The notes beneath the pieces were generated by a model. It was not told the DNA's origin. It was given only the letters and a program-made list of their open reading frames with translations, and ran no database searches. The position numbers were made by a program, and so were the translations under genes. 64,000 nt of DNA from an uncultured Planctomycetia bacterium (GTDB lineage Bacteria > Omnitrophota > Gorgyraeia > 2-02-FULL-51-18): positions 2,981-66,980 of the forward strand of contig CAYZGM010000001.1 of the NCBI GenBank assembly GCA_964478015.1, read 5' to 3'. Below, one piece after another: positions 579 through 16,001 of this stretch. The stretch's first letter is position 1. Every line of letters begins with the position of its first letter.

Positions 579-582
579 GGCA

Positions 583-1221: not shown

Positions 1222-1283
1222 ATCCGGGAAACATGGGGGTATTGTAATACGGGATTCCCTGCCATGGCAACAATTGAAATTTG

Positions 1284-1330: not shown

Positions 1331-1346
1331 GTTTAGACGGCCGGTC

Positions 1347-1487: not shown

Positions 1488-1612
1488 CTGAATCACCCCC
1501 GTTCAGGAGTCATTCCTTTATTCAATGCTCAATAATCATTCCCCCCTTCCTAGTACTTCTAGTATGGATGAGGACAGGAGCCAATGTTAGGGCTTGTTAA
1601 AATATGATAAGA

Positions 1613-2524
1613 TTAGTTAAAAATAGACCTAGATAAGACCCACTGAGAAATTTTGAGGAAGATCGCTTCGCGGGTTGTTTCGTTCAGGAGCTCATGATAC
1701 AGTCCCTCGTAGATCTCGAGCTCTTTATTCTGAGAGCGTAATTTTTCAAAGAAACGTACGGTGGCCTCCCGGGACACCACCCGGTCGTCCCCCGCCTGAA
1801 GAACCAATGCCGGGATATGAATACGCGAGGCCGTCGTATCCGCACAACGGATCATACGAACGAGTTCTGAATAAAGTCTTGCGCTAATCTGGTGATGAAT
1901 CAGGCGGTCAGAGCCGTACTTTTTTTTAATCTCCGCGTCGTGTGTTAAAAATGCGGGATCTACGCGGTTATTCTGGGTGAGATCCGAAAAAAGGCAAGAT
2001 CCGCCGCAGGCCAAAAAATGTCTCCAACGCGGAATCTTCAAACTGATCCCGAAGTTTGGGGAACTTAAGACCAGCCCCCTGGCCTCAATTTCCGGGCGCT
2101 CAGCCAGGAAAGACGAAACCACCAACCCCCCGTAACTGTGTCCCATAAAAAATAGACCGGAAACACCCGCTTTCTCTTTGGCTAGACGATAAACAACGGC
2201 CAGATCAGAAAAATAATCAGAAAACTTTCGGAGGCAGCCGCGCTTGCCGCCGCTTTGCCCGAAACCCCTTAGATCGGGGAGATAGGAGGCAATTCCCGCT
2301 GAGGCAAGGTGTTCAGCGAATGCCGTGTAGCGTCCGCCATGTTCCCCCATCCCGTGAACGACGATCATGGCTGTTTTTGTCGCCGAGGATGGCGTTAACG
2401 CTCGAAAAAAAATAGGGGTCTCGTCATGCGAGACGAAGCGGTGCTCAGACCAAAGGTCCAACGAAGCATTACCTTTCGGCGGCATAAAAAGACTGTAGAA
2501 GGTCTTTGTACCGATTCTGAACAA
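1613..2524 (-). CDS. Alpha/beta hydrolase, lysophospholipase / monoacylglycerol lipase family
   Basis: VVHGMGEHGGRY (HG oxyanion region), GHSYGG nucleophile elbow (GxSxG), C-terminal acid/His region; overlaps the acyl-CoA synthetase 3' end, so the true start is probably the internal MPPKG. Confidence 0.8.
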   Translation of the reverse strand: MFRIGTKTFYSLFMPPKGNASLDLWSEHRFVSHDETPIFFRALTPSSATKTAMIVVHGMGEHGGRYTAFAEHLASAGIASYLPDLRGFGQSGGKRGCLRKFSDYFSDLAVVYRLAKEKAGVSGLFFMGHSYGGLVVSSFLAERPEIEARGLVLSSPNFGISLKIPRWRHFLACGGSCLFSDLTQNNRVDPAFLTHDAEIKKKYGSDRLIHHQISARLYSELVRMIRCADTTASRIHIPALVLQAGDDRVVSREATVRFFEKLRSQNKELEIYEGLYHELLNETTREAIFLKISQWVLSRSIFN

Positions 2525-4337
2525 CCTCCCTTTTGACTTTCAGGGTCGGTGTTAGCTCGCCGGAGGCCTGACTAAAATCTTTATCCAGAAGGGCAAAAAA
2601 TTTGATGCGTTCGTAGGGCGCAAAATCTTTCATGAGTTCTTGCACGCGTCCATCCATGAATTGAAAAATCTTTGGATTGTGTAGCAGATCCTGGTAATCT
2701 CGGTGCTCAATTTTTTGCTCAAGGGCCCATTCCGCGAGAGGGGCCTCCTTAGGAACAATCAGCGCGGTGATGCATTTTTTCCCCTCGCCAAAAAGGACGC
2801 AGCGCAAAATGTAGGGGTCCTTTTCAAGGAGAACTTCGATCGGTCTGGGGGTTATTTTTTTACCGCCGGAGGTGACGATAAGCTCCTTTTTTCTTCCCGT
2901 GATAAACAAAAATCCCTCGGAGTCAAGGTGGCCCAGATCCCCGGTATAAAACCAGCCGTCTTTGAGCGCCTGCGCGGTCTCGACCGGCTTTCGAAAGTAG
3001 CCTTTCATGACGCAGGCGCTTCGTGTGATGATCTCGCCATCCTCGGAAATCTTTACTTCCACCGTCCGAAGCGGAATACCCACGGAGCCAAAACGGTGCC
3101 GATCGTGACGATTCACCGTGATGACCGGAGCTGTCTCCGTCAATCCGTATCCCTCGTAGATCATGACGCCGAGGTCACAAAAAAACTCACCAATCTCCTT
3201 TGACAACGGGGCTCCGCCTGACACGCAAAAACGCAGACGCCCTCCGAGCCCCTTTTTAAACTTATGGTAAACCAAGATTTCGGCCAGGGGCGTCGAAAGC
3301 TTGGCCATCCAGCCTGTTTTTTCTCCCACCCTTTTTCTACGTCCCAGTTCGCGAGCGTAAGCGAACAGTCCTTGCCGGAACGGACTTGCCGAGCGCACCT
3401 TGTCCATGACCCGTGTTTGGATTTTCTCAAAGAACCGAGGGACTCCCAAAATAAAGGTTGGTCGTATCTCAGAAATATTCTGCGGGACGGTATCCAAATT
3501 TTCTGCATAGGCGATCGTCGCGCCCAGACGGACCATCAGGTAATGTCCGGCCATTCGTTCGAACACATGGCAAAGCGGCAGGAAAGATAAGTGTACGTCG
3601 GCGGAGCTCATTTTCAGGGTTTCTTCCGACAGAACAACATTTTGGATGAAATTCGAGTGTGTCAGCATCACTCCTTTTGGGGTCCCGGTCGTTCCGGAAG
3701 TGTAAATGATGCTGGCCAGCTCAGACGACCCGACATTTTTCCGGATCCGGTCCAAATCCTCATGCGTTGGCGTGTTCCAAAGATCCGAGGTTCCAAAGAT
3801 AGGGATCTCAATCTCCCTGCGATCTAGGAGCACGGAGCTTTCAAAAGCGATCATTCCTCGCAGGGACGGTACTTGTCTTTGAATGGAGCTTACTTTCTGG
3901 AACAGAGCTTTATTGGAAAGCGCAAGCCACTCACAGGCGGAATCCACAAGAATGTATTGGATTTCGGAGGCGCTGAGCGTGGTGTAGATCGGAACCGTGG
4001 AAGCGCCGATCGAAAGGGCCGCAAAGTCTGTGATGAGCCATTCAGGCCGGTTTTCCGAGAGGATCCCGATCCGATCGCCAGTTTTTACACCCTGCTTTAA
4101 AAAAAAAGAAGCCAGGGCATTCACGCGGCGCTGGACCTGATCCCAGCCCAGGCCTTGATATTTTTGATTCTCCTTGTGGAATAGGGTTTTTTTTGTCGGG
4201 GTTCGAAAGGATGTTTCTTGCAGCAAAAGCGCCAAATTCTGCGGTGGTGTATTCAAGAGGCCTTTGGTGGGGTCAATTGTCCGTAAATTTCGGTTGGCGT
4301 TTTTCAATGAATGCCCGAATACCCTCCCGCATGTCAT
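2469..4337 (-). CDS. Long-chain fatty acid--CoA ligase (AMP-binding superfamily)
   Basis: YTSGTTGTPKGVMLTH AMP-binding motif, GYGLTET, TGDLG, C-terminal GELTPTLKVKR; the ORF-track start at 4478 overlaps the crotonase gene, so the internal Met at 4337 is more plausible. Confidence 0.85.
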   Translation of the reverse strand: MTCGRVFGHSLKNANRNLRTIDPTKGLLNTPPQNLALLLQETSFRTPTKKTLFHKENQKYQGLGWDQVQRRVNALASFFLKQGVKTGDRIGILSENRPEWLITDFAALSIGASTVPIYTTLSASEIQYILVDSACEWLALSNKALFQKVSSIQRQVPSLRGMIAFESSVLLDRREIEIPIFGTSDLWNTPTHEDLDRIRKNVGSSELASIIYTSGTTGTPKGVMLTHSNFIQNVVLSEETLKMSSADVHLSFLPLCHVFERMAGHYLMVRLGATIAYAENLDTVPQNISEIRPTFILGVPRFFEKIQTRVMDKVRSASPFRQGLFAYARELGRRKRVGEKTGWMAKLSTPLAEILVYHKFKKGLGGRLRFCVSGGAPLSKEIGEFFCDLGVMIYEGYGLTETAPVITVNRHDRHRFGSVGIPLRTVEVKISEDGEIITRSACVMKGYFRKPVETAQALKDGWFYTGDLGHLDSEGFLFITGRKKELIVTSGGKKITPRPIEVLLEKDPYILRCVLFGEGKKCITALIVPKEAPLAEWALEQKIEHRDYQDLLHNPKIFQFMDGRVQELMKDFAPYERIKFFALLDKDFSQASGELTPTLKVKREVVQNRYKDLLQSFYAAER

Positions 4338-5058
4338 GGGTGGGTATGAGGGTTCGGAATTCAGCTTCCTCGATAGACATCCCCTCTTCGAGATTTTTAT
4401 CCAGCCCCTGGCGCATTGCGCGCATCGCCGCCCGAATGGCGGGGAGACCGTGACGCGAAATTTTTTTTCCCATTTCACGGGCCGCTTTGATCAGCGATCC
4501 ATCTGAGACGACCCGGTTGACTAGCCCAATGCGAAGGGCTTCTTGCGGTGTAATCAAGTCCCCCGTCAAGATAAGTTCCGCTGCGCGGCTTGGACCCACC
4601 ACGCGGGGCAAACGCTGACTCCCCCCAAATCCGGGAATAATGCCGAGCGTGATCTCGGGTTGGGCAAAACGCGTGCGGTCAGAGGCGATGCGCAGGTGGC
4701 AGGCCAGAACAAGTTCCTGCCCTCCTCCGACGCAGGCACCGTGAATCGCGGCAATCACTGGTTTTTCAGAATTTTCGATCTTATTGAAAACTTTTTGCCC
4801 CTTTTGAATCACTTTTGCAATTTCTTCCGGCGTGGTGAGGGAGGCCATTTCTTTCAGGTCTACGCCCGCTATAAAAACATTCGGGATGGCGCTGACGATG
4901 ACAATGACTTTTGTTTTTGGTTCCGCGTTCAGCTCATCCGTTGCCTGCTCTAGTTCCCCCAAGAGCTGAGTGCCCAGCGCATTCACGGGGGGCCTGTTGA
5001 TGCTTAAAAAGGAAACCCCGTCTTCCGTGGAGATGCTTAAAAATTGAAATTGGGTCAT
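4273..5058 (-). CDS. Enoyl-CoA hydratase/isomerase (crotonase family)
   Basis: ISINRPPVNALG, AAIHGACVGGGQELVLACHLRIAS, PEITLGIIPGFGGSQRLPR crotonase fold motifs. Confidence 0.9.
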   Translation of the reverse strand: MTQFQFLSISTEDGVSFLSINRPPVNALGTQLLGELEQATDELNAEPKTKVIVIVSAIPNVFIAGVDLKEMASLTTPEEIAKVIQKGQKVFNKIENSEKPVIAAIHGACVGGGQELVLACHLRIASDRTRFAQPEITLGIIPGFGGSQRLPRVVGPSRAAELILTGDLITPQEALRIGLVNRVVSDGSLIKAAREMGKKISRHGLPAIRAAMRAMRQGLDKNLEEGMSIEEAEFRTLIPTHDMREGIRAFIEKRQPKFTDN

Positions 5059-5084
5059 TGGTCCTCCTTGGTCTTAAGAACGCC

Positions 5085-6308
5085 TTACGCGTATTCTAGA
5101 AATCCCCGCTTTGTTTTTTTTCCCAGAAACCCCGCCAGCACCATTCGTCGAATCACGGGAGCTGGCCAAAACCGGTCGCCATAGAGCTTGTGCAGCGATT
5201 CCAGCTCCTGAAGCACAGCATCGATCCCAAGTTCGTCTGCGTATTGGAGCAAGCCGCCTTTGGCTTGAGGAAAACCGATTCCCGCAAGAACAGCTACATC
5301 GATGTCTGCGGGTGAGGCCACTTTTTCCTGAAGACATAAGGCCGCTTCATTGATCATAGCCATGAGAAGGCGATTGGCTGAAAAAGGTGCTTTTTTGGTG
5401 CCGGGCGCCGATGCTTTCTTCTGAATGCCGGCGAGAAGATGTTCCACCGTTCGGTCGTTTTCTTCCCCTCCATAATTGTAGAAGCCCGCACCGTTTTTAA
5501 CGCCAAAACGATTTTTTTGGTAAACCTCCTCCCAAAGTTGGGCAGGAGCCATACGGGGTCCGTACTCCGCAAGCAGAATTCCCACGACATCATGGCAAAT
5601 GTCGAGCCCGATCGTGTCGACCAGAATGAATGGCCCCATCGGAAAGCCAAACTCGACCATCACTCGGTCTATTTCTTTCAAAGACGTACCCTCTTGAGCG
5701 CAGAACGCCGCTTCGTTCAGATAGGGCATGAGAAGACGATTGACCAAAAAACCCGCGCACTCATTGACGCGCACAGGAATTTTTCTTAGGCCCTCGCAAA
5801 ACGCAATGGAATCTGCCACGGTTTCGTCGGAGGTGGCCAGGCCCGGAATGACCTCGATGAGTTTCATCACATGCGCTGGGAAAAAAAAGTGGATGCCAAC
5901 AACTTTTTCGGGGCGTTTGGTCACGGCACCCAAAGCACTGATGGATAGCGCCGATGTGTTGCTCGCCAACAAAGCATGCTCGGGTAGAATGGCGTCTAAT
6001 TCCTGGAATATTTTTTTCTTGATGTGAATTTTCTCAGGAACAGCTTCGATGACGATATCGACGTCCTTGAGAGACGTAAGATCTGTCGTCACGCTGACGA
6101 GAGACATTTTCGACTCCATCTCAGACGGAGACATTTTTCCTTTGTCTACGCGGGCTTGGTAGATCTTTCGAATGTTTGCGAGCGCCTGCTGCGCCAGCTT
6201 GTCATCCACTTCACGCAACACGACGGGCAAGCCAGAATAGCTGATCACCTGCGCGATCCCGGAGCCCATGGCCCCGCCGCCAACCACCGCCGCCTTATAA
6301 ATAGTCAT
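5085..6308 (-). CDS. 3-hydroxyacyl-CoA dehydrogenase (NAD-binding, with a duplicated C-terminal domain)
   Basis: MTIYKAAVVGGGAMGSGIAQV Rossmann motif; 3HCDH N and C domains; start placed at the internal ATG 3 nt after the thiolase stop. Confidence 0.9.
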   Translation of the reverse strand: MTIYKAAVVGGGAMGSGIAQVISYSGLPVVLREVDDKLAQQALANIRKIYQARVDKGKMSPSEMESKMSLVSVTTDLTSLKDVDIVIEAVPEKIHIKKKIFQELDAILPEHALLASNTSALSISALGAVTKRPEKVVGIHFFFPAHVMKLIEVIPGLATSDETVADSIAFCEGLRKIPVRVNECAGFLVNRLLMPYLNEAAFCAQEGTSLKEIDRVMVEFGFPMGPFILVDTIGLDICHDVVGILLAEYGPRMAPAQLWEEVYQKNRFGVKNGAGFYNYGGEENDRTVEHLLAGIQKKASAPGTKKAPFSANRLLMAMINEAALCLQEKVASPADIDVAVLAGIGFPQAKGGLLQYADELGIDAVLQELESLHKLYGDRFWPAPVIRRMVLAGFLGKKTKRGFLEYA

Positions 6309-7504
6309 TTTCTCTCCAAGACGACCGCCGCACCTTGACCGCCGCCGATGCACAGTGAGGCGACGCCGTAACAGAGGCTCTTTCGTTTCATCTCGTGCAA
6401 CAGGGTCAGGATGATTCTGGTCCCGGTGGTTCCGACGGGATGTCCGAGGGCGATGGCACCGCCATTGACGTTCATGAGGTTACGATCAAGACCCAGTACT
6501 TTTTCACAGGCGATCACCTGCGCGGCGAAAGCCTCGTTCAATTCTATCAATTGGATGTCTTTGAGCGTCAGGCCCGCTTTTTTAAGCGCCAGAGGGATTG
6601 CCACTGTCGGGCCAATGCCCATCCGTTGCGGTTCCACGCCGCCAAACGCGTAAGCGCGGACGGTCCCCAACACCTGCTTGTATCCTAATTCATCTGCTTT
6701 TTTTCGCGTCATGATAAGAAGAGCTGCTGCGCCATCGGAGATTCCACAGGCGTTTCCCGGCGTCACCGTTCCGTTCTCCTTGAACGTGGTCGGATAGAGC
6801 GCGAGCATTTGCTCGTTGAGCGCCGGATTTGGACCCTCGTCCTGCATCACCGTTTCGGGCGGCAAGGGTTTCCCCATGGTTCTTTTTTGGACCAGGACGG
6901 GGGCGATTTCTTCCTTGAACTTTCCCTCGCGTGTGGCGCGAAAAGCGCGCTGATGGCTCAGCACCGCATACTGGTCTTGCTCAGACCGGGTGATCTTGAA
7001 TTCTTCCACGAGATTCTCGGCGGTGCGTCCCATCAATTGACCGCAGATAGGGTCCGTGAGCCCCTCCCACAGAGCATCGATCATTTCGGTGCTGCGCATG
7101 CGTTTTCCAAACCGTAGATCACGGCTAACATAGGGTTGGGTTGACATGGACTCTGTCCCGCCCACGATTTGGACATTCGCATCCCCAGAGAGAATATTTT
7201 GGCAGCCGCTCACCACCGCCTGAATGCCAGAAGCGCAGTTTCTTGCCACCGTGTACCCAGGAACTGTTTTGGGAATGTCGGCCATCAACGAGATGACGCG
7301 CGCAATATTCGGCGCATCGCTGGCCTGTCCCACGCAGCCGAAGATGACCTCGTCCACCGAGGCCGGCGTGATTTTTGTTTTTTCCAGGAGAGCCCGCACA
7401 ACAACCTCGCCGAGTTTTTGCGCGGATAGATCGCGAAAAGCTCCGCCAAACACGCCCTGCGGCGTACGCACACCATCTACGATCACGATCTCTGTTTCAG
7501 GCAT
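6305..7504 (-). CDS. Acetyl-CoA acetyltransferase / 3-ketoacyl-CoA thiolase
   Basis: VARNCASGIQAV active-site Cys region, NVNGGAIALGHPVGTTG and CIGGGQGAA C-terminal thiolase motifs. Confidence 0.9.
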   Translation of the reverse strand: MPETEIVIVDGVRTPQGVFGGAFRDLSAQKLGEVVVRALLEKTKITPASVDEVIFGCVGQASDAPNIARVISLMADIPKTVPGYTVARNCASGIQAVVSGCQNILSGDANVQIVGGTESMSTQPYVSRDLRFGKRMRSTEMIDALWEGLTDPICGQLMGRTAENLVEEFKITRSEQDQYAVLSHQRAFRATREGKFKEEIAPVLVQKRTMGKPLPPETVMQDEGPNPALNEQMLALYPTTFKENGTVTPGNACGISDGAAALLIMTRKKADELGYKQVLGTVRAYAFGGVEPQRMGIGPTVAIPLALKKAGLTLKDIQLIELNEAFAAQVIACEKVLGLDRNLMNVNGGAIALGHPVGTTGTRIILTLLHEMKRKSLCYGVASLCIGGGQGAAVVLERK

Positions 7505-7527
7505 GGGCCCCTCGTTTTGTATTTTTA

Positions 7528-9615
7528 TCAGACATTCTGCTGCGATACAAGCGCTTTTATCTTCGGAAGAAGCCGCAGGGTCTCTTCTTCTCCCCGATGA
7601 ATGAAAGGGGCCGGTTTATAGAAGTTGACCCAGCTCGAGTTCGGAAGAACCGGCCTCACAAGAACGTCTGCGCCCTCCCCCTCAATGTCAGCAATTTCCG
7701 CTTCCATCGATTGGATCGTGTTCATCAAAATATCGAATAAGTTGGGCGAAAAAAACCGGGCCATGGATTGCTTGAACCAAAAAAGACCTTGGGCTGCGAA
7801 GCCTTTCTCCATTGCTTCGGACCGGGCTTTTTCTACGGCCTCATTCTTGATCAGTCTTTTTTCCATCATGTCCTTGCTCGTGGGAAAGACGTTTACGGCG
7901 ATCACCTTGTTGGCTCCGGCCTGATGGAGCGCACGAATGGGCAAAGGGTTTAAAATACCGCCGTCGACGATGACATTCCCATCCATCATGATCGGTTTGA
8001 TGATGGCCGGGATCGCGATCGAGGCCCTGACAGCGTCTGCCACGGAACCCGATTCGAACAGGAAGCTTTGCCGTGTGGTGAGATTGGCCGCTGTTACTTT
8101 TAGAGAGATGCGGCATTGATCGAAGCTTTTATTGCCAAGATACTTGCGAAAATGGCGGATTACCTGTTGCCCGTGAAGCAGACCCCTGTAGGGGAAGAGG
8201 TTGATGTCAATAAGATTGCTCATCAGAAGCCTCAAATTAATCTGCATGGCGGCTTTCTCGATCTCCATGGGATTGAGCCCCACCGCATAGAGCGAGCCGA
8301 TCAAAGCGCCTATGCTGGAACCGGCGATGATATCCACGGGTATTTTTTCGCGCTCCAGTACTTTTAAGACGCCAATATGCGCCAGGCCAAAGGCCGCACC
8401 GCTGCCCAGCGCTAACCCGACAAGATTCCCGCTCAGGTATCGTGCCATGTGGCGTATGCGGCGCGAGTATTCCGCGTCAGGGTTTTCGGTGACAATGGGC
8501 CACCCAGCCCCCTGGTCCTGACTGGCCGGTGCGATCGGCACGGAAAAACATCGCTTTTTCCCAAACATTTCTTGTCTTAGCGCAGCCGTTGTGTGAGCGC
8601 CGAAAGCGACCTCATGGATCACGATGACGATCTTGTCCTCGGGGAATGACAACGATTTTTCGATGTCACGCAAGGCATCCCGAGATTCCGCAAGGCTATT
8701 GAGATGACTATCTGTGACGAGAAATAAAAAATCGGACTGCGATACGGCTTTCATGGACGCCTCATCGGGCTCCGGGCTCAGATCCATGACGATGAAGCGG
8801 AAATCGATCGACAGATGATTCAAAAGCGAAATCAACGTCGCGTGGGCATCCGTGTCTTTCGGGTCGTAGGATAAACAAAGAAAATCAAAACCGGCGCGAT
8901 GCTTCAAAAGACGGCTTTTCAATTCTTCGGCGGAAAAAGATTCGATGTTCTGGAAATTTCTGAGCGGAATCTTTTCAATGCGTTCACCGAGCGACGGGCC
9001 CTCTGATCCCGAGGAGGACAGATCCAGCAGAACCGTCTTTTGGCGGGTCTGCTCCAGAAGGCTGGCCGCCAAATTCATGGAGAAAAAACCTCTCTGGGTT
9101 TTTGGCAAACTTCCATAGATCGAGAGAATATCGCTTTTAAAAAGCGAGCGGGAACGAGTTTCGGTTATCTTGAGGCGAGAACTCAGGCGCCGGCTAAGTT
9201 CAAGCGAAATCGTGGCATTACGTTCGATGGATTTTTTAAAACCATCCTTTTTTATTTCGAGTACCAGGGAATCCGAGAGAGCGTGGATTGTAGCGGAATG
9301 CGGTTGCTCCGTAAGAAGGGACATTTCGCCAAAATAATCACCGCGCCGAAGGTACGCCAGGACCTTTTTCTTGTCGAGTACCGTGACGAATGCCTCGAAG
9401 CGGCCCGAAACAATGACGTAAAAACTCTCCGCCTCCCCGCCCTCCCGGTAAACAGTTTCATCTTTTTTGTACTCGACCAGGCGCATCAGCTGGCTGATGG
9501 ATCTTAGCTCCCAAGGACTTAATCCTGCAAAGAGCGGGCATTGGCCCAACAGCACAACCTTGTCAATTTTCTGGAAACGATTGCCTGCGTCCTGACCGAG
9601 CGGCGCCGAGTCCAT
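7528..9615 (-). CDS. Cyclic-nucleotide-binding-domain-containing patatin-like phospholipase (NTE-like architecture)
   Basis: N-terminal CAP_ED domain (GDYFGEMSLL ... HSATIHA); C-terminal patatin domain with GSGAAFG oxyanion loop, GSSIG nucleophile motif and VIVDGG catalytic Asp; start overlaps the PilZ stop (TAATG). Confidence 0.85.
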   Translation of the reverse strand: MDSAPLGQDAGNRFQKIDKVVLLGQCPLFAGLSPWELRSISQLMRLVEYKKDETVYREGGEAESFYVIVSGRFEAFVTVLDKKKVLAYLRRGDYFGEMSLLTEQPHSATIHALSDSLVLEIKKDGFKKSIERNATISLELSRRLSSRLKITETRSRSLFKSDILSIYGSLPKTQRGFFSMNLAASLLEQTRQKTVLLDLSSSGSEGPSLGERIEKIPLRNFQNIESFSAEELKSRLLKHRAGFDFLCLSYDPKDTDAHATLISLLNHLSIDFRFIVMDLSPEPDEASMKAVSQSDFLFLVTDSHLNSLAESRDALRDIEKSLSFPEDKIVIVIHEVAFGAHTTAALRQEMFGKKRCFSVPIAPASQDQGAGWPIVTENPDAEYSRRIRHMARYLSGNLVGLALGSGAAFGLAHIGVLKVLEREKIPVDIIAGSSIGALIGSLYAVGLNPMEIEKAAMQINLRLLMSNLIDINLFPYRGLLHGQQVIRHFRKYLGNKSFDQCRISLKVTAANLTTRQSFLFESGSVADAVRASIAIPAIIKPIMMDGNVIVDGGILNPLPIRALHQAGANKVIAVNVFPTSKDMMEKRLIKNEAVEKARSEAMEKGFAAQGLFWFKQSMARFFSPNLFDILMNTIQSMEAEIADIEGEGADVLVRPVLPNSSWVNFYKPAPFIHRGEEETLRLLPKIKALVSQQNV

Positions 9616-9986
9616 TAAACCTTACGAGTCAGCCGGCTTTCAATGAATCTGACCAGGATTTCGCGGTCCTGATCCGATATTTTGGAAAAATAAAGGGCGA
9701 GAAAGTAATCGTCGGACGAGGGGTCTTTTTCGCGTCGCACCACCACTGCTTTCATGCGCAGGGTTTTGCCGTGCTTCGCATTCTTGTCCACTGGCGGGAG
9801 CATCAGCGCAAGCGCCACCTGCGTCATCAGAGGAATATTTTTATCCACCAGACACAATGCCCCATGTTCGCTGATGTTGACTGTCCGCGCCCGGGCCTCA
9901 TAATTCTGGTGGCCTATCTTAAAGGGCAGCTCCTCGTCAACTCGGACCGAGCGCCGCCGATCTAAGATCGGTTTTGGGGTTCTCAT
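9615..9986 (-). CDS. PilZ domain protein (c-di-GMP receptor)
   Basis: RRRSVR (RxxxR) and NISEHGA (D/NxSxxG) motifs in correct spacing; start taken at internal MRTPKPIL, overlapping the upstream gene stop by 4 nt. Confidence 0.7.
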   Translation of the reverse strand: MRTPKPILDRRRSVRVDEELPFKIGHQNYEARARTVNISEHGALCLVDKNIPLMTQVALALMLPPVDKNAKHGKTLRMKAVVVRREKDPSSDDYFLALYFSKISDQDREILVRFIESRLTRKV

Positions 9987-10267
9987 TCCGCTGTGGCAGC
10001 GGGCGCGGACTGGGCTTGGGCCGCTTTCGCCGCCGCCTCTTCCTGGGCTTTCTTGGTCTTCGCGGCTTCCTGCGTGACATATAGCTGAAAGCACTGTTTG
10101 TTAGCGAAATATTTTCCATCACGATAGTACCAGTCCTTACGGCGAATACGCTTGTTGGACTGCGCGCAGTTGGTGGGACGCGATTTTTTCTTTTTGAGTT
10201 TTTTTAAAGGCGTCTCAGCAGATTCTGTCTTGGCTGCAGCGGACTTTGTTTCTTCTACCATGATCAT
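9983..10267 (-). CDS. Small basic Lys/Ala-rich protein of unknown function (about 94 aa)
   Basis: MIMVEETKSAAAKTESAETPLKKLKKKKSRPTNCAQSNKRIRRKDWYYRDGKYFANKQCF... with a GGAG SD 5-8 nt upstream of the ATG at 10267; embedded between two PilZ genes. Confidence 0.4.
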   Translation of the reverse strand: MIMVEETKSAAAKTESAETPLKKLKKKKSRPTNCAQSNKRIRRKDWYYRDGKYFANKQCFQLYVTQEAAKTKKAQEEAAAKAAQAQSAPAATAE

Positions 10268-10373
10268 TGCTCCATTTTTTTTGATTTGATTTTCTTCCTG
10301 ACCTATCTTAAACGCTGGGCGCTTAAAATCAAGACTAATCTTGGGGGTGATCCCGGGGGTCAAACGATCGGAC

Positions 10374-10754
10374 CTAGGCTTGAGCTTGTTTCTTGTTCGT
10401 CCTCAACCATTCACGGTAAACATACTCGAGAACACGCGTTCGATCGTGCAGGCTGATTTTTGTAAGACGTATTCCCGCCTCGAGCCCGTCAGCCCAAGCG
10501 ACTTTTCCTGTGGCAAAGACGGGTAGGTTGTCTCCCGGAACATTCATGCAGACTTCGATGGGAGTTCCGGAAGCGACGGTTTCTTTGAAGCCAACACGCA
10601 TCCCCTCCCGGCTCAAGTCTTTCGCCAGCGTTTTCCCAAATATGGGATTCAGCGTCAGCGTACGAAATTCCAAATCGAGCGGCGCATTGAAGCGCATGAA
10701 TTTACGTCTTTCAGTGGCGGTGAGGTTGGGTCGTGATCCCGAATCGTCAGTCAT
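10374..10754 (-). CDS. PilZ domain protein (c-di-GMP receptor), second copy
   Basis: RRKFMR (RxxxR) and DLSREGM (DxSxxG) motifs; start overlaps the HTH gene stop by 8 nt. Confidence 0.7.
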   Translation of the reverse strand: MTDDSGSRPNLTATERRKFMRFNAPLDLEFRTLTLNPIFGKTLAKDLSREGMRVGFKETVASGTPIEVCMNVPGDNLPVFATGKVAWADGLEAGIRLTKISLHDRTRVLEYVYREWLRTNKKQAQA

Positions 10755-10947
10755 TTTTAAAGTAACGGATTAGGTCGCTTTTTAGGAAGCGGTAATTGTC
10801 CCCCACCTTGCGGCCCGGGATTTTTTTAGATTTGACGAGTTTGTACAGCGTTTGCCGACTAATGCTAAGAAACTGGCAGGCGTTTTCCGTTGTCAACGCC
10901 TTATCAACGCTCTCGAGCTCGGCTTCCTGTAAATTATTTTTATTCAT
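10747..10947 (-). CDS. Excisionase-family helix-turn-helix DNA-binding protein (MerR-like HTH_17)
   Basis: LTTENACQFLSISRQTLYKLVKSKKIPGRKVGDNYRF is a typical excisionase/HTH_17 signature; GGGAGAG SD 7 nt upstream of the ATG at 10947; a putative promoter places the TSS downstream of the longer ORF-track start. Confidence 0.6.
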   Translation of the reverse strand: MNKNNLQEAELESVDKALTTENACQFLSISRQTLYKLVKSKKIPGRKVGDNYRFLKSDLIRYFKND

Positions 10948-10997
10948 CGCATCTCTCCCTGCCTTGGAGGTAAGAGCCTCAATCAAAACGGACATTT

Positions 10998-11026
10998 ATT
11001 AAAACAATTCAGTCTGTTTATGTCAA
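10998..11026 (-). promoter_or_regulatory. Putative sigma70 promoter of the HTH-PilZ-patatin operon (-35 TTGACA, 17 bp spacer, -10 TTTAAT)
   Basis: Minus-strand reading: TTGACA (11026-11021), 17 nt, TTTAAT (11003-10998). Confidence 0.35.
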
Positions 11027-11073
11027 GTAAATAATAAGTAAGTTAAAACTGGTTAAACCCTAGGTGGGTCCTG

Positions 11074-11104
11074 GGAATAAAAAAGCCGGGCTTTCGTGCC
11101 CGGC
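11074..11104 (-). terminator. Rho-independent terminator downstream of the TIGR04073-like gene
   Basis: Perfect 7 bp stem GCCGGGC/GCCCGGC (11085-11104) with a 6 nt loop, followed on the minus strand by a T-run (plus strand aataaaaaa at 11076-11084). Confidence 0.5.
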
Positions 11105-11129
11105 TCTCACAAAAAAACCAGCGGATTAC

Positions 11130-11453
11130 TTAAAACACGTATTCCGGCTCTAGGATGGGACGGTAATTCTCAGGCAGCGGGAATGGGAAAGTCGCGATTT
11201 CATAGATACCGGCACCCGTTCTAACCACGGTCATTCCGGCGCCCTTTGCCAAGCCCAGCGTCATTCCGGTGAATGCATTGTCTTCGACGCTCATATTGTA
11301 AATATTCTTGGGAAGCTCCACCCAACCCGTCAAGGTGTTTGCCACTCCGCGACCCAATTTTGTGAAAGCATCCTGAGCAAAGCAAACAGTTGTTGTCATC
11401 AGGATGAGCATTGCCACGTGCGCTGCCACCCCCTGCCAAAATTTCTTTGTCAT
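11130..11453 (-). CDS. Exosortase-system-associated small secreted protein (TIGR04073-like)
   Basis: About 107 aa with a signal peptide (AAHVAMLILMTTTVCFAQDA) then KLGRGVANTLTGWVELPKNIY and a Gly-rich C-terminal half; this matches my recollection of the TIGR04073 family, which I could not confirm without a search. Confidence 0.55.
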   Translation of the reverse strand: MTKKFWQGVAAHVAMLILMTTTVCFAQDAFTKLGRGVANTLTGWVELPKNIYNMSVEDNAFTGMTLGLAKGAGMTVVRTGAGIYEIATFPFPLPENYRPILEPEYVF

Positions 11454-11479
11454 GCCGACGCCTCCTTAGACCATAAAAT

Positions 11480-11508
11480 CATCGCGCTTAGTATACCTAA
11501 CACAAAGG
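11480..11508 (-). promoter_or_regulatory. Near-consensus sigma70 promoter for the TIGR04073-like gene (-35 TTGACA, 17 bp, -10 TATACT) with an AGGAGG RBS downstream
   Basis: Minus-strand reading: TTGACA (11508-11503), 17 nt spacer, TATACT (11485-11480), then AGGAGG 7 nt before the ATG at 11453. Confidence 0.45.
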
Positions 11509-11590
11509 GTTATGTCAAATTTAATTTGCAAAAATGCATAAAAAATCTTTGTGTTCCCCTGATAACATTGTTAGAATCCTGGGGATAGCT

Positions 11591-12406
11591 ATGTATGAGT
11601 CATTCTACGCGCTAAGGCAGAAGCCTTTTTCGGTCACGAGCAACCCGTCGTTCCTTTTTTTAAGTGAACGCCACAGGGAGGCCTTGGCTCATCTGACCTA
11701 CGGGATCAGGGAGCGCGTGGGCTTCATCGAGATCACCGGCGAGGTTGGGACTGGAAAAACGACGATTTGCCGTACGCTTTTGAATCAGCTAGACGAGAAG
11801 ACAAAGACCGCGTTTATCTTCAACTCCAATTTATCGGAGCTTCAGCTGATGCAGACGATCATTGAGGATTTCGGCATTAAAACGGCTCAGAGAAGTAAGA
11901 GCGCCCTTTTTTTTGAGCTCAATCGTTTTCTGATTGAGCAGCTGGCTCTAGAAAACAACGTTGTCCTCATCATTGATGAGGCCCAAAACCTAAGCCTGAA
12001 GCTGTTGGAGCAGGTACGCATGCTGTCGAATCTTGAATCGGAAAATGAGAAGTTGCTCCAAATCGTGCTGGTGGGTCAGCCGGAACTGCGCGACAAGCTG
12101 AACTCGCCATCCCTGCGGCAGTTGCGCCAGAGGATTGCGGTGCGTTACCATATTGAGGCTTTGAGCAAGGAGGAAGTGCCTCTCTACATTGGCCATCGCC
12201 TGGGGTTGGCGGGCGCGAACGGCGCTTCGCCCATCTTTGACGCCGAGGCAATCGAGGAGATCTACCGGTATTCCAAGGGGATTCCAAGACTAATCAACAT
12301 GGTTTGCAACAAAGCGCTTTTAACCGGGTTTGTCCGGGAGGAGCGCCTTATTTCAGAGGAGATCATCAAACGGTCGATCCGCGAACTGGAAGGAAACTTC
12401 ACATGA
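11591..12406 (+). CDS. ExeA/GspA-like AAA ATPase (PEP-CTERM-locus type secretion ATPase, TIGR03015-like)
   Basis: TGEVGTGKTTICRTLL Walker A, VVLIIDEAQNL Walker B, ExeA-like N-terminus YALRQKPF; start chosen at MYESF with a GGGGA SD 6 nt upstream. Confidence 0.8.
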   Translation: MYESFYALRQKPFSVTSNPSFLFLSERHREALAHLTYGIRERVGFIEITGEVGTGKTTICRTLLNQLDEKTKTAFIFNSNLSELQLMQTIIEDFGIKTAQRSKSALFFELNRFLIEQLALENNVVLIIDEAQNLSLKLLEQVRMLSNLESENEKLLQIVLVGQPELRDKLNSPSLRQLRQRIAVRYHIEALSKEEVPLYIGHRLGLAGANGASPIFDAEAIEEIYRYSKGIPRLINMVCNKALLTGFVREERLISEEIIKRSIRELEGNFT

Positions 12407-12972
12407 GCATTATCAATGAGGCATTGAAAAAAGCTGGTCAACCGATTATCCACCAAGCGGACGAAAAGAAGTCCGGGGCGTCCTTGCGTCCGCAGATCGA
12501 GCGTCAGCAACAGAGACCGCGCTCCCATTGGGGGCCATTTTTCATCGTGGGCGTGGTGGCGCTGATCACGGGCCCAATCTTGGTGCCCCTGTTTCACGGA
12601 GCGTCACAAAAAAATAGAACCGGGGACACGGCGCAATCGGCGCGATTGGCGTCGATGGGCGAGGCAGTTTCTGGGAGTTTTTCGCTGGGTCAGGAGAATT
12701 CAAGCGCCTTGGCGCAATTTGCCATTGAAGAAACGCCAACCCCGCCGTCTCCACCCCCCGCGTGGGCTGGTTTCGGTTCAAAAAAAAGTTCCGCCTCCAA
12801 ATTTGATTTGAGCGGCATCGTTTACTCGGAAAGCGATTCCTATTGCCTGCTCAACGGAAAGGTTTTGAAAGTCGGCGAGAAAATCGGCGGCGCAACTTTA
12901 GTGCAGATCTTGCCGAACCAAGTTACGCTGGATTACCTTGGGGAGAAGATCATGATCTCCGCCTCTTCCTGA
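12403..12972 (+). CDS. GspB/ExeB-like membrane protein (N-terminal cytoplasmic tail, one TM, Pro-rich linker, C-terminal T2SS-B-like domain)
   Basis: TM segment WGPFFIVGVVALITGPILVPLF; C-terminal LSGIVYSESDSYCLLNGKVLKVGEKIGGATLVQILPNQVTLDYLGEKI resembles the GspB C-domain; ATGA overlap with the ATPase gene. Confidence 0.6.
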   Translation: MSIINEALKKAGQPIIHQADEKKSGASLRPQIERQQQRPRSHWGPFFIVGVVALITGPILVPLFHGASQKNRTGDTAQSARLASMGEAVSGSFSLGQENSSALAQFAIEETPTPPSPPPAWAGFGSKKSSASKFDLSGIVYSESDSYCLLNGKVLKVGEKIGGATLVQILPNQVTLDYLGEKIMISASS

Positions 12973-12985
12973 GAGGGTTTGGGAC

Positions 12986-14107
12986 TCAGCCTTTTCTTTT
13001 TTCGAGCGCTCCTAAAATTACCGCAGCCGGAACATCCGACACGACTACAACTTTCCCCGTTCTTACGGGAAGGACAAAGCGGTTCTTTTTTTGAATAGAT
13101 TTTTTATCATAGTGGATAGACTTGAGAATGTTTTCGGTTGAAAGGCCCTTGAAGTAAAGCGGCAGGTTAAACTTCATCAAGACTTTTTCCAGCCTCTGCG
13201 TGAGACCGGCATCTTTGAGCACCCCTAGCTCCCGCGAGATATCGCAGGCCACCAGCATCCCTATGCCCACCGCTTCCCCGTGCGTGTAGGCTCTTGAATA
13301 TGCCGACACGGTTTCGATCGCATGTCCGGCCGTGTGGCCAAAATTAAGAATGATTCGGGTCCCCGTTTTGTCCAATTCATCGGCTTCGACCACGTCAGAT
13401 TTGATTTTGGCGCAGCGCTCGATCACATTTTCAAGGCGGGTTTCATCTTTGCGGAGAGCCTCAAGTCCCAAGGATTCCAGAAGTTCAAAAAGTGTCGCGT
13501 CCTTGATCACCCCATACTTGATGATCTCCGCAAAACCATCGCTCCAGACCCGGTCCGGCAGGCTTGAGAGCATGGTGATGTCACTTAGCACGAGGGACGG
13601 CTGGTAAATGCTTCCGAGGAGATTTTTCCCCTCCGGCAGGTCCACACCCGTTTTTCCGCCGATGGCGGAGTCCACCTGTGCGGTGAGGGTCGTTGGAACC
13701 TGAACGTAGGGAATTCCGCGACGGTACGTCGCCGCTGCGAAACCGGTCAGATCCCCAACAACTCCTCCGCCAAGAGCCAGCAAAGCCAAGGGCCTGCCCT
13801 TTCCATCCCTGGCTGCTAGGAATTTGATAAGGCGTGACCAAACCGCCTGGGTTTTGGTGGCCTCAGAGCTTTTTGCTTGGGGCATTAAGAACAGAGCTTG
13901 GTCAAGAGCTTCTCTGGAAAGAGCGCTGTGGATGGCCTGCCCGTAGTACACCCAAATGGGCTTTTGCGACACGACGACGAGCGTGTGGTTTGAAAAACCG
14001 GCTTGTTTGAGGTGGGCGCCCAATCGTGTCAACAGCCTGGGCCCAATGAGTATTTTGTAGGCTCTGTCTTTCAGGCGGACGCGGACAGATCTCATCCGAT
14101 AGGACAC
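12986..14107 (-). CDS. aroB: 3-dehydroquinate synthase
   Basis: GGGVVGDLTGFAAATYRRGIPYVQVPTTLTAQVDSAIGGKTGV nucleotide/metal-binding motifs of AroB. Confidence 0.9.
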   Translation of the reverse strand: MSYRMRSVRVRLKDRAYKILIGPRLLTRLGAHLKQAGFSNHTLVVVSQKPIWVYYGQAIHSALSREALDQALFLMPQAKSSEATKTQAVWSRLIKFLAARDGKGRPLALLALGGGVVGDLTGFAAATYRRGIPYVQVPTTLTAQVDSAIGGKTGVDLPEGKNLLGSIYQPSLVLSDITMLSSLPDRVWSDGFAEIIKYGVIKDATLFELLESLGLEALRKDETRLENVIERCAKIKSDVVEADELDKTGTRIILNFGHTAGHAIETVSAYSRAYTHGEAVGIGMLVACDISRELGVLKDAGLTQRLEKVLMKFNLPLYFKGLSTENILKSIHYDKKSIQKKNRFVLPVRTGKVVVVSDVPAAVILGALEKRKG

Positions 14108-14418
14108 CCTGCAGAAATTTCTTTATCCAGGGTGAGCAAAGTCAATTTGTCGCCATCCTTAGCCGCCAAAAGCATCCCCTGGGATTCCACGCCGCGAATA
14201 ATGCTGGGAACAAGATTCGTAACAACAACCACCATTTTTCCGAGCAATTCCTCTCGGGAGTAGAACTTCTTGATGCCTGCAACCACGGTCTTTTTTTCTG
14301 CACCCAGATCTATGTCAACTCGCCACAGGCGGTCCGCTCCGGGGATCTCCTGGGCATCCAGGATCTTGGCCGCTCGAAGCTGAGTCTTCTTGAAATCTTC
14401 GAGGGTCAGATCGCTCAT
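14092..14418 (-). CDS. tRNA-binding domain protein (CsaA / Trbp111 / MetRS C-domain-like)
   Basis: LRAAKILDAQEIPGADRLWRVDIDLGAEKKTVVAGI ... VVVVTNLVPSIIRGVESQGMLLAA OB-fold tRNA-binding domain signature. Confidence 0.8.
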   Translation of the reverse strand: MSDLTLEDFKKTQLRAAKILDAQEIPGADRLWRVDIDLGAEKKTVVAGIKKFYSREELLGKMVVVVTNLVPSIIRGVESQGMLLAAKDGDKLTLLTLDKEISAGCPIG

Positions 14419-14723
14419 TTCTTATCAGATTTTCCGGCTGCGCCTTTTCCGCCGGGAGCTGCTGAGCCCTTGGCGGCAACGGGAGCTGCCGTTGTCGCGT
14501 CCGCTTTTGCCGGAGCTCCCGCACCCGCTGCCCCCGCTTCAGCCACCGCTTTTTCCTTCTTAACCTTGATACGCTGCATCTTTACCTTTGGGATGCCAAG
14601 AACCGAAATGCTCTCGCCCCACAGACTTTTATCTTTCAAAACTTTCAAACGCTCATAGCGTTTAAGCACCGAACGATGCTTCTTGCCTTTTCCTCCCGCG
14701 CGCAAACTCGAATGTATCGACAT
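14415..14723 (-). CDS. Small basic protein with an Ala/Gly/Lys-rich low-complexity tail (histone-H1-like composition); coding status uncertain
   Basis: MSIHSSLRAGGKGKKHRSVLKRYERLKVLKDKS ... AEAGAAGAGAPAKADATTAAPVAAKGSAAPGGKGAAGKSDKK; no family motif recognised. Confidence 0.3.
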   Translation of the reverse strand: MSIHSSLRAGGKGKKHRSVLKRYERLKVLKDKSLWGESISVLGIPKVKMQRIKVKKEKAVAEAGAAGAGAPAKADATTAAPVAAKGSAAPGGKGAAGKSDKK

Positions 14724-14767
14724 TCCTCGCCCTCCTCGATTTCGTTGAAGCCGGGTATTCTACCATA

Positions 14768-15361
14768 TTACCGTCGGCGCAGAAAACAATCCTTGTATTT
14801 GCTCGAAAAGCGCGCCTGATCCTTTTTCGCCTCCTCCTTAGAGGCGTATTGTCCGGCGCATACCTGAAAATACTCACCGCTGGGAATGATCGAACTGGTA
14901 AAACCCATTTGTTGGAGGGCCGCCATCTCTGCCTCTGCGAGCGATTTCTTGCGGTGGGTCACCAGCTGGATCGTATAAGGTTTTGCGGACGCTTCCACGG
15001 CTGCCGGTCCCGGGTTTTGGGCCCGTTCCGGTGCCATGGAAATGGTCGGGGAAACTGCCGGTGTTGTCTGCGATCTCTTCTGGTGGGTTTCGATCGTTGG
15101 GGCGGCTGGGCTCGCTTGGATGGTCCGGGATGAGGTTAGGGCAGACCGCACAATAGATTTGCCGCGCAGGACACCCAAGAAAAATACTCCGCAAAGAAGC
15201 AGAATCACGAGAATGCCGCCCATCAACAACTGCTCTGTGTTGGTGCTCAGCAGAATCGGTTTTTGCGACCGCGGCAGGCCCGGAAAACGCTCCGCTTTTT
15301 TTGGCTCTTGCGAAAACTGCTCAAAAAGTTCTTGCTGGGTCTCTTTCGACTTTGGATCCAT
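14768..15361 (-). CDS. SPOR domain protein (peptidoglycan-binding, cell-division associated), single TM
   Basis: TM segment LLMGGILVILLLCGVFFLGVL; C-terminal YTIQLVTHRKKSLAEAEMAALQQMGFTSSIIPSGEYFQVCAGQYASKEEAKK fits the SPOR fold pattern. Confidence 0.7.
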   Translation of the reverse strand: MDPKSKETQQELFEQFSQEPKKAERFPGLPRSQKPILLSTNTEQLLMGGILVILLLCGVFFLGVLRGKSIVRSALTSSRTIQASPAAPTIETHQKRSQTTPAVSPTISMAPERAQNPGPAAVEASAKPYTIQLVTHRKKSLAEAEMAALQQMGFTSSIIPSGEYFQVCAGQYASKEEAKKDQARFSSKYKDCFLRRR

Positions 15362-15413
15362 CTACCATTCTTTCTACGTGTTAAATTAAAAGTGAGGATT
15401 CCGTAGTATACAA

Positions 15414-16001
15414 TTACTGCCAGCTCGCTTCAAGCATTCGGCCGGAAGCTCCGTACAACACCCAGCGCCCTCCGCTGGAAGATATCTTTGCAACGCGAGT
15501 GCCGTCGCCAAATTTTGGAAAACGCCTGTCGACCAATTTTGAGAATGGCTCTAGCGAATTTTCCGGAACGCATAGCCGCAAGAAAATCTTTTGGATTTTT
15601 CCGTTTTTCAAAGAAAATCCCGCGCGCAGCGCCGCCTCTCCGATCCTGCCATCAAGCAACCGCACGCTCCACCCTCCCCGCTTCGGGAGCCACACCCAGC
15701 GAGAATCCTGCAACTCCAAGCGCTCCGTTCCGTTGAAATTTTTAAATATTTGGTTCAAAGAAAAAAGCTGTGTCTTAGACATCTTCCCGAGGGTTATTTT
15801 TTTTATTGAGAATTCGGCGCCAAAAAGAAAGAATTTCGTGTGAATTCCCTGAATTTGAATGGGGTGGCCTGCCATGCGCGCGCATTGGATCGATAACCCT
15901 CGATCTACCAAGGGGTTAGGGAATAAGATCAGGGCGAGTAAAAATGCAGACGCACCGGCAAGGATCGTCATCACAGGTCGGAGGAGCCGACGTTTATGCA
16001 C
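15414..16001 (-). CDS. Hypothetical membrane-anchored protein; start overlaps the stop of the GAF/HD-GYP gene
   Basis: N-terminal hydrophobic anchor VMTILAGASAFLLALILF; no recognisable domain; 8 nt overlap with the upstream gene suggests co-translation. Confidence 0.4.
   Translation of the reverse strand: MHKRRLLRPVMTILAGASAFLLALILFPNPLVDRGLSIQCARMAGHPIQIQGIHTKFFLFGAEFSIKKITLGKMSKTQLFSLNQIFKNFNGTERLELQDSRWVWLPKRGGWSVRLLDGRIGEAALRAGFSLKNGKIQKIFLRLCVPENSLEPFSKLVDRRFPKFGDGTRVAKISSSGGRWVLYGASGRMLEASWQ

Follow-up and report, generated by a model that had tools for sequence, protein, structure and literature searches.

A PilZ- and HTH-containing cassette ahead of a three-domain patatin lipase in Omnitrophota: probable front end of a lipid deacylation and fatty-acid operon

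What does a patatin-type lipase do when its gene directly follows genes for a helix-turn-helix (HTH) protein, two PilZ proteins with motifs for cyclic diguanylate (c-di-GMP) and a small basic protein? This question is raised by five minus-strand genes in a 64,000-nucleotide stretch of contig CAYZGM010000001.1 (hereafter the window), deposited as an uncultured Planctomycetia bacterium and placed by GTDB in Omnitrophota. An initial annotation made from the sequence alone had described them as one co-transcribed unit of a kind it did not recognize. The locus is, we think with fair probability, an operon for the regulated deacylation of phospholipids or acylglycerols and for the catabolism or turnover of the resulting fatty acids, with the five flagged genes as its front end. 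We read it this way mainly because the neighbors of the lipase gene, pooled over species, appear to supply most of the steps that turn phospholipid into acetyl-CoA and glycerol-3-phosphate. The genes of the predicted operon, in the order of transcription, are:

10747-10947, minus strand: stand-alone HTH_17 protein (excisionase/MerR-like, BldC-like), 66 aa; Pfam HTH_17, E 8.8e-15
10374-10754, minus strand: PilZ-A, stand-alone, 126 aa; Pfam PilZ, E 1.8e-11; 8-nt overlap with the HTH gene
9983-10261, minus strand: small basic protein, 92 aa, pI 9.8, outside any Pfam or NCBIfam family, with K-rich and A/K/E-rich tails
9615-9986, minus strand: PilZ-B, stand-alone, 123 aa; Pfam PilZ, E 5.5e-12; ATGA and TAATG overlaps
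7528-9615, minus strand: three-domain lipase, 695 aa; Pfam cNMP_binding, E 6e-24, and Patatin, E 6.5e-32
6305-7504, minus strand: acetyl-CoA C-acyltransferase (thiolase); Thiolase_N 2e-81, Thiolase_C 1.2e-47; TIGR01930 447 bits against a cutoff of 240
5085-6308, minus strand: 3-hydroxyacyl-CoA dehydrogenase (FadB/FadJ C-terminal type); 3HCDH_N 3.5e-62, 3HCDH 2e-51; FadJ/FadB models 1e-99 to 1e-107
4273-5058, minus strand: enoyl-CoA hydratase (crotonase family); ECH_1 1.3e-66 and NCBIfam enoyl-CoA hydratase models; 26-nt gap before the gene
2469-4256, minus strand: long-chain fatty-acid--CoA ligase (FadD11-like); AMP-binding 1.4e-78
1613-2485, minus strand: alpha/beta hydrolase (Hydrolase_4; lysophospholipase/monoacylglycerol-lipase-like), the last gene; Hydrolase_4 5.5e-65

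The operon and its conservation

The five flagged genes can all be read from the sequence between 10947 and 7528, where the initial annotation had placed them, and Pfam assigns domains to all of them but the basic protein. The overlaps it had listed are equally plain: 8 nt between the HTH and PilZ-A genes, the 4-nt ATGA between the basic-protein and PilZ-B genes, and the 1-nt TAATG between PilZ-B and the patatin gene. Judging from these overlaps, the PilZ-B gene is translationally coupled to both of its neighbors. Contigs identical to the window, from Hainich groundwater, carry public gene calls that agree with ours but for a single difference: the basic-protein gene stands, but its start moves from 10267 to 10261 (92 aa), which the better GGAG spacing at 10261 also favors.

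The same annotation had ended the transcription unit at 7528. The coupling it proposed is borne out by the overlaps and by the conservation described below (15/15 loci), but the end is not, since five more genes follow. The thiolase gene begins 23 nt past the patatin stop behind a GAGGGG ribosome-binding site, the dehydrogenase start overlaps the thiolase stop (ATGA), the ligase gene has a probable TTG start 16 nt past the hydratase stop, and the hydrolase gene overlaps the ligase gene by 17 nt. Across the run, overlaps measure 8, 4, 1, about 2 and 17 nt and gaps 16-26 nt, with one gap of about 110 nt. We found no terminator above chance inside 10947-1613; because none stands out within the gene run, we take the operon to reach 1613, which gives a predicted ten-gene unit of about 9.3 kb on the minus strand. 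The functional assignments at its downstream end are at family level: the ligase matches FadD11 and long-chain ligase models at 5e-87 and 7e-80, below their equivalog cutoffs, and the hydrolase has a weak lysophospholipase L2 match (70.6 bits, below the cutoff of 362).

Scanning one genome per species, we found at least 492 relatives of the lipase and analyzed the best 80 as species-level loci (numbered with an L; L081 is a public contig identical to the window). These 80 all come from Omnitrophota-type metagenome-assembled genomes (MAGs), some of them deposited as "uncultured Planctomycetia". Homologues of the 695-aa lipase are all about 700 aa long, and those whose source is named belong to Candidatus Omnitrophota MAGs, with one Candidatus Eisenbacteria MAG as the sole exception.

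The five-gene order, which the initial annotation had proposed to look for in other genomes, is conserved in related species. Where the lipase is at least 40% identical and at least 2.8 kb of upstream flank is available, the HTH, PilZ-A, basic-protein and PilZ-B genes (here the cassette) all lie upstream of the lipase gene (15/15 loci), and PilZ-B lies within 600 nt of it in 16/16 loci at the same identity level. In a more distant clade (lipase less than 40% identical) the full cassette is adjacent in 0/41 loci, a PilZ or basic protein is encoded within 8 kb upstream in 14/36, and a basic-(HinT)-PilZ-B module can be found within 3.5 kb of the lipase gene.

Lipid genes accompany the lipase gene more widely. 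A thiolase, 3-hydroxyacyl-CoA dehydrogenase or acyl-CoA ligase gene starts within 400 nt after it in 41/67 loci, the thiolase gene following it in many loci; any of the five lipid genes is beside it in 44/53, and the ligase gene is downstream in 33 of the 43 loci with at least 7 kb of flank. Distant species have GlpK (701 bits, above cutoff), GDPD (8.6e-51), a FadE-like acyl-CoA dehydrogenase or a FixC/ETF-QO-like oxidoreductase as immediate neighbors, and in 11 loci the lipase region borders on a FadE-like gene cluster, whose member in L039 is confirmed. Three loci (L015, L016 and L019) keep the cassette beside the lipase gene. Downstream, L019 offers merely 82 nt of sequence, and unrelated genes follow the lipase gene in L015, L016 and L017, the contig of the last beginning just before the lipase gene. 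The cassette thus persists in L015 and L016 next to a lipase gene that lacks its lipid genes, so the link between the two is not a by-product of a larger operon.

The lipase and its predicted pathway

The lipase comprises a cyclic-nucleotide-binding (CNB)-like domain (residues ~20-150), a pseudo-MinD/ParA domain (~160-360) and an RssA/PlpD-like patatin domain (~400-690), and has neither a signal peptide nor a transmembrane segment. Its AlphaFold2 model has a pLDDT of 81 and a pTM of 0.77.

The patatin domain (Pfam Patatin, 111.7 bits against a cutoff of 27.7) keeps the oxyanion loop, GxSxG serine and catalytic aspartate credited to it earlier. An alignment of 21 homologues shows no variation in GSSIG (S434), in DGG (D551) or at G404, S405, G406, A407, A408 and G410 of the oxyanion loop GSGAAFG, in which Phe occupies the basic-residue position of G-G-x-[RK]-G. 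Its best NCBIfam match is RssA (NF007623; 147.2 bits, below the cutoff of 272), so that by its score the protein is a relative of RssA and not an RssA orthologue. The oxyanion loop of RssA resembles the GLALGSGAAxG of the lipase. The nearest solved chain is PlpD by both sequence (7e-48) and fold (Foldseek TM 0.85); the CBASS effectors CapV and CapE reach 0.53-0.65.

The CNB-like domain is readily recognized (PF00027, 84.3 bits; Foldseek matches to CRP and PKA-R domains). In CAP, PKA and HCN domains, an arginine of the phosphate-binding cassette is critical for binding cAMP and cGMP. Here that cassette reads FGEMSLLTEQPHSAT, and at PKA-type spacing a histidine occupies the position of the arginine that contacts the cyclic phosphate. 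This PHS(A/V) with His for Arg recurs in 75/75 full-length orthologues aligned (80 orthologues in all), and the glutamate is also gone in many. The cyclic-nucleotide sensing that the initial annotation had assigned to the lipase is therefore doubtful, at least in its canonical cAMP/cGMP form.

The middle domain had been overlooked. It has no Pfam match in the window lipase; orthologues match AAA_31, CbiA and MipZ, and the family profile aligns with Escherichia coli MinD at 90.7% probability by hhalign (E 1.3e-6, 149 columns). The deviant Walker A motif is destroyed, GKGGVGKT having become GSLPKTQRG in the window, while most of the family has G-R-T and a few members G-K-T. Because this motif is lost, we predict a pseudo-ATPase that would serve dimerization or docking. 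One MAG, nzgw335, encodes two paralogous three-domain lipases (L058 and L080), with a thiolase gene after each.

From family membership we infer a simple division of labor. The cytoplasmic RssA/PlpD-type lipase would take acyl chains off phospholipids, lysophospholipids or acylglycerols; the Hydrolase_4 enzyme would complete the lyso- or monoacyl species; the FadD-like ligase would activate the released fatty acids; and the enoyl-CoA hydratase, 3-hydroxyacyl-CoA dehydrogenase and thiolase would shorten them. The CNB-like domain would probably take no part through canonical cAMP or cGMP binding. Four of the five gene types of beta-oxidation (FadD, hydratase, dehydrogenase and thiolase) are thus present in the operon.

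The cassette and its promoter

The features that precede the cassette are:

11085-11108, minus strand: intrinsic terminator of the upstream TIGR04073 gene, an 11-bp GC-rich stem followed by a U-run (UUUUUUAUU)
11042-11056, minus strand: direct repeat TTAAC-N5-TTAAC (period 10 bp), its end 15 nt upstream of the -35 hexamer
10998-11026, minus strand: sigma-70-type promoter with an extended -10, TTGACA at 11026-11021, a 17-nt spacer and TGnTTTAAT ending at 10998

The initial annotation had proposed both a sigma-70-like promoter and an upstream terminator, and both hold up. The promoter is present, its consensus TTGACA-N14-TTTGnTnnAAT being kept in 16 species. The terminator folds with a minimum free energy of -24.6 kcal/mol (z -3.79; 0/200 shuffles fold equally well) and forms the 5' boundary of the transcription unit. 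A consensus scan for promoters and terminators returned no more sites than it did in shuffled sequence and missed the conserved promoter and the strong terminator alike, the promoter because position 2 of its -10 hexamer is T; we checked the former by alignment and the latter by folding. The position of the promoter would put the start of transcription near 10991, which rules out a longer, 82-aa reading of the HTH gene.

The TTAAC-N5-TTAAC repeat has no other exact match in the window. Over about 1 Mb of loci we count 12 exact matches, with about 2 expected by chance on our own estimate, and 11 of the 12 occupy one and the same position ahead of the HTH gene (ten other species and L081). The repeat and the promoter are kept where the remainder of the intergenic region has diverged among species, and we regard the repeat as a candidate binding site for the HTH_17 protein. 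A further array lies at the other end of the operon (1586-1620, minus strand), where four phased A/T-rich half-sites (TTAAC, TTATC, TTAAC, CTAAC), spaced at 10 bp, extend over the stop codon of the last gene, with the same half-site as in the promoter repeat. As a matching downstream site it is doubtful, relatives having TTAGC/TTAAGC-type repeats at the equivalent place. TTAAC-like arrays in the whole window number 5 against 1.8 expected, marginally above chance (5/100 shuffles reach 5).

The HTH protein scores 47 bits with TIGR01764 (cutoff 28.8) and is 56-89% identical over 13 orthologues, with an invariant recognition region, ISRQTLYKLV. It had been labeled excisionase-type. The HTH_17 domain stands, but the excisionase role, and with it a mobile-element reading, does not. 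We saw no integrase among the 21 open reading frames (ORFs) that we profiled (window positions 48-17172) and recognized none by eye, the method used for all ORFs past 17 kb; base composition is even, with a GC content of 0.48-0.54 over this part of the window and no clear island, and the flanks are conserved across species. These features mark the protein as a regulator-type HTH.

Both PilZ proteins carry the RxxxR and D/NxSxxG motifs attributed to them in the initial annotation, as RKFMR and DLSREG in PilZ-A and RRSVR and NISEHG in PilZ-B, and nearly all orthologues keep them. A Rosetta-stone search for PilZ-B fusions gave 83/83 stand-alone homologues. Another protein of possible relevance to c-di-GMP is encoded at 15994-17172 (minus strand): a GAF protein with an HD_5 (HD-GYP-type) domain whose HD dyad is apparently replaced (LLKETTKIG) while DGTGYP is kept, and which may be a degenerate c-di-GMP phosphodiesterase or receptor.

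The small basic protein belongs to an orphan family of 367 close homologues (127 clusters at 50% identity) and matches nothing in Pfam at E values up to 10. It has 25 invariant residues, with the core PTNCxQSNKRIRRKDWYYRxGKYFANKQ, in lineages whose lipases are only ~60% identical. Distant members have all four cysteines of a CxxC...CxxxC pattern; the window protein has C32 and C57, the latter not invariant, with S35 and A53 at the other two positions. Zinc-finger matches of the distant members are all sub-threshold (LIM 0.0019, zf-FLZ 0.017, zf-FCS 0.56, TRASH 0.85), hhalign against archaeal L24e gives 10.5%, and a Foldseek search of the PDB returns nothing at E<1. The AlphaFold2 model is a beta-hairpin followed by a long helix, of low-to-moderate confidence (pLDDT 62.6). 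Taken together, these data are consistent with a decayed C2-C2 zinc-finger-like orphan that would have lost two of its four cysteines in the clade of the window; its kinship with TRASH or L24e looks like resemblance only. The genomic context of the four-cysteine relatives is uninformative, their contigs being shorter than 1 kb.

How might these parts work together? We infer that the HTH_17 protein would bind TTAAC-N5-TTAAC next to the promoter, while the stand-alone PilZ proteins would read c-di-GMP and signal onward to the HTH and zinc-finger-like proteins, to the CNB-like and pseudo-MinD domains of the lipase, or to both.

Several relatives have a larger cassette. L013 (6211-7608) and the equivalent regions of L004, L009, L010, L012, L062, L041, L056, L064 and L076 carry extra genes for a third PilZ protein, a Minf_1886 protein (TIGR04138, 107 bits; cutoff 60) and, between the basic protein and PilZ-B, a HIT hydrolase of the HinT type. 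All three are absent from the whole window; since relatives carry fuller cassettes, that of the window is a reduced one. In L020, L038 and L064 (6464-7249) a gene for an SAM hydroxide adenosyltransferase (SAM_HAT) separates PilZ-B from the lipase gene, and in L064 a GDPD gene comes after it. L038 also encodes, at 4384-5430, a fusion of a restriction-endonuclease-like Mrr_cat domain with PilZ directly upstream of its basic-protein gene.

Upstream of the cassette, 11130-12972 holds three genes associated with exosortase or secretion: that of the TIGR04073 small protein on the minus strand and, on the plus strand, those of an ATPase of the XrtA/PEP-CTERM system (TIGR03015, 328.7 bits; cutoff 324.5) and a T2SSB-like protein. 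Throughout the close clade, this PEP-CTERM/GspA-like ATPase gene pair and the cassette are divergently oriented, and copies of TIGR04073 also follow the ligase gene in the distant loci L020 and L038. Downstream of the operon, a conserved hydrophobic small ORF of 46 aa (1347-1487, minus strand; MIKHDLLSGLLYGVVLGLFFATQLSAHLPLIVILAVLFGAKMISLK) lies between the hydrolase gene and an M23 peptidase gene. A conserved leader rich in purines (to ~1560) comes before it, and a GC hairpin and T-run near 1306 come after it; ORF and leader are kept in at least seven related species and have no Rfam match. The Rfam scan of the window returned a single tRNA gene (20638-20708, minus strand). Farther away, a long minus-strand gene run (~37400-57800) resembles, by its translations, glycosyl-/heptosyltransferases and methyltransferases, i.e., a lipopolysaccharide or exopolysaccharide cluster.

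Competing readings and comparison with known systems

The closest competitor, which we hold to be possible and rather unlikely, is membrane-lipid homeostasis or envelope remodeling. An NTE/RssA-like deacylase would turn over the cell's own phospholipids, the ligase would re-activate the fatty acids, and c-di-GMP would tie the process to the state of the surface or exopolysaccharide. A cytoplasmic lipase suits this scheme, as do the PEP-CTERM/exosortase-associated genes and M23 peptidase among the neighbors. So does the CNB-plus-patatin layout, which recalls eukaryotic neuropathy target esterase (NTE), a deacylase of phosphatidylcholine and lysophosphatidylcholine (PMC6995513). Five close relatives, moreover, have the ligase gene directly after the lipase gene, three of them with the hydrolase gene too, and lack the thiolase, dehydrogenase and hydratase trio, and we recognized no FadE in the window. 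Remodeling accounts less well for the trio that stands between lipase and ligase in the window and in many species, and for the degradative genes (FadE-like, FixC-like, GlpK and GDPD) beside the lipase gene elsewhere.

Some of these observations count directly against a catabolic operon. No acyl-CoA dehydrogenase (FadE) or electron-transfer flavoprotein (ETF) gene was recognized in the window, the part past 17 kb being judged by eye, and beta-oxidation is therefore locally incomplete. With the trio missing from five relatives, the core function may be fatty-acid recycling and not oxidation, and where present the trio could run in the biosynthetic direction. Beta-oxidation in anaerobic fermenters or acetogens needs an electron sink, and Omnitrophota are generally predicted to be such organisms (PMC8542988, PMC10066038). 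The lipase has no export signal, so it would act on the cell's own lipids or on imported ones, and the divergent PEP-CTERM/GspA-like ATPase pair shows an equal linkage to the cassette.

The link to the ATPase pair leads to another alternative, in which the cassette is a nucleic-acid-binding module in its own right that responds to c-di-GMP and is merely co-transcribed with the lipase gene; it would serve as a nucleoid or global regulator or would control the divergent PEP-CTERM/GspAB-like genes. The near-invariant core of the basic protein, conserved far above the enzymes, would fit a general nucleic-acid or ribosome partner; the cassette is always beside the GspA-like ATPase gene in the close clade; the Mrr_cat-PilZ fusion is adjacent in one relative; and in distant lineages other genes part the basic-HinT-PilZ genes from the lipase gene, or no cassette gene was found within 8 kb upstream. 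We nonetheless judge an independent module quite improbable, given the 15/15 adjacency with a start/stop overlap into the lipase gene among lipases only 40-60% identical, an adjacency that outlasts changes in the downstream genes and in TIGR04073. Far less probable still is the toxin/defense-like effector that the initial annotation had entertained, that is, a nucleotide-activated anti-phage lipase (CBASS CapV-like or Pycsar-like) destroying the membrane on infection. Patatin lipases are known CBASS effectors, and the CNB domain gives domain-level matches to Pycsar effector models (PADLOC PycTIR, 7e-15), but the PADLOC scan of the five proteins found nothing beyond domain level, and the CBASS lipase model matches at 20 bits against a cutoff of 200, where RssA scores 147 bits. 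The structural neighbor is PlpD and not CapV or CapE, the arginine of the phosphate-binding cassette is missing, and no CD-NTase or PycC cyclase is found among the 21 profiled ORFs. The gene, finally, is phylum-wide and sits in conserved metabolic, lipid-catabolic neighborhoods, not in variable islands, with no clear compositional island and no integrase seen to suggest one.

We thus retain regulated lipid deacylation with fatty-acid catabolism or turnover. A more specific version, which we consider unlikely, is a c-di-GMP-gated lipolysis switch: the PilZ, HTH and zinc-finger proteins would control transcription and, by docking on the pseudo-MinD and CNB-like domains, the activity of the lipase, which would feed a dedicated fatty-acid oxidation. 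If true, it would be the first case in bacteria of a catabolic lipase system under second-messenger control and, in ultra-small, host-dependent Omnitrophota, a possible route for consuming the membrane lipid of a host or prey.

Most members of the uncultured phylum Omnitrophota are ultra-small, and a host-dependent or predatory way of life is attributed to them. For this phylum, a lipase gene found throughout it beside nearly every step of glycerophospholipid breakdown is a concrete, testable metabolic module. The clade that sets PilZ receptors directly before the lipase would tie c-di-GMP to lipid catabolism or turnover, processes that to our knowledge are rarely associated with c-di-GMP as an output. 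The locus also offers three tractable oddities: a CNB domain with His for Arg, a pseudo-MinD inside a lipase and a small protein whose conservation is histone-like. If the regulatory links do not hold, the locus is reduced to a lipid operon of an ordinary, lineage-specific kind. As the initial annotation had supposed, the organization matches no description in the literature that we searched: queries on Omnitrophota with beta-oxidation and phospholipase yielded only unrelated papers, and neither lipid catabolism nor c-di-GMP signaling comes up in the main genomic studies of Omnitrophota that we searched. The parts are all of known kinds; in their combination, and in the three-domain lipase, they form a variant that is undescribed and confined to a single phylum.

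How do these parts compare with the systems that they resemble? The lipase shares the patatin fold and Ser-Asp dyad with RssA and PlpD, and shares with NTE (PNPLA6/Nte1) the placement of CNB-type domains N-terminal to the patatin domain. It differs in having one CNB-like domain, with Arg replaced by His, and a pseudo-MinD/ParA domain inserted between the CNB-like and patatin domains, a layout not found in the literature searched; the membrane anchor of NTE and the autotransporter domain of PlpD are both absent. A patatin domain (as in CBASS, with CapV and CapE) and a CNB sensor (as in Pycsar) are shared with nucleotide-controlled effectors, whereas the lack of a cyclase, model scores far below cutoff, a different genomic context and phylum-wide conservation set the locus apart.

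Like a fad-type operon, the locus encodes a ligase, a hydratase, a 3-hydroxyacyl-CoA dehydrogenase and a thiolase together. Compared with FadD, FadB/FadJ and FadA, however, the hydratase and dehydrogenase are separate proteins, no FadE was recognized in the window, and at the head of the operon stand a lipase and a PilZ/HTH cassette instead of a FadR-type regulator. For the PilZ proteins the nearest parallel is Borrelia PlzA, a PilZ protein reported to bind DNA and RNA, and to do so at the operon for glycerol catabolism, glpFKD, with binding that depends on c-di-GMP (PMC9915621). Both cases combine small PilZ proteins, canonical in their RxxxR and D/NxSxxG motifs, with genes for glycerol/lipid catabolism; here, two or three single-domain PilZ proteins share one operon with separate DNA-binding candidates.

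The HTH protein invites comparison with BldC, a 68-aa MerR-like protein without effector domains that binds A/T-rich direct repeats, AATTxxxx(C), head to tail (PMC5859096). At 66 aa, with an HTH_17 domain only and a conserved A/T-rich direct repeat spaced by about one helical turn at its own promoter, it is of the same general type. The repeat differs (TTAAC with a 10-bp period here, 9 bp for BldC), and sequence and profile searches against PDB chains reached neither BldC nor Xis. On the strength of domain family, size and direct repeat, BldC-type binding is a plausible model for how the HTH protein would recognize its promoter.

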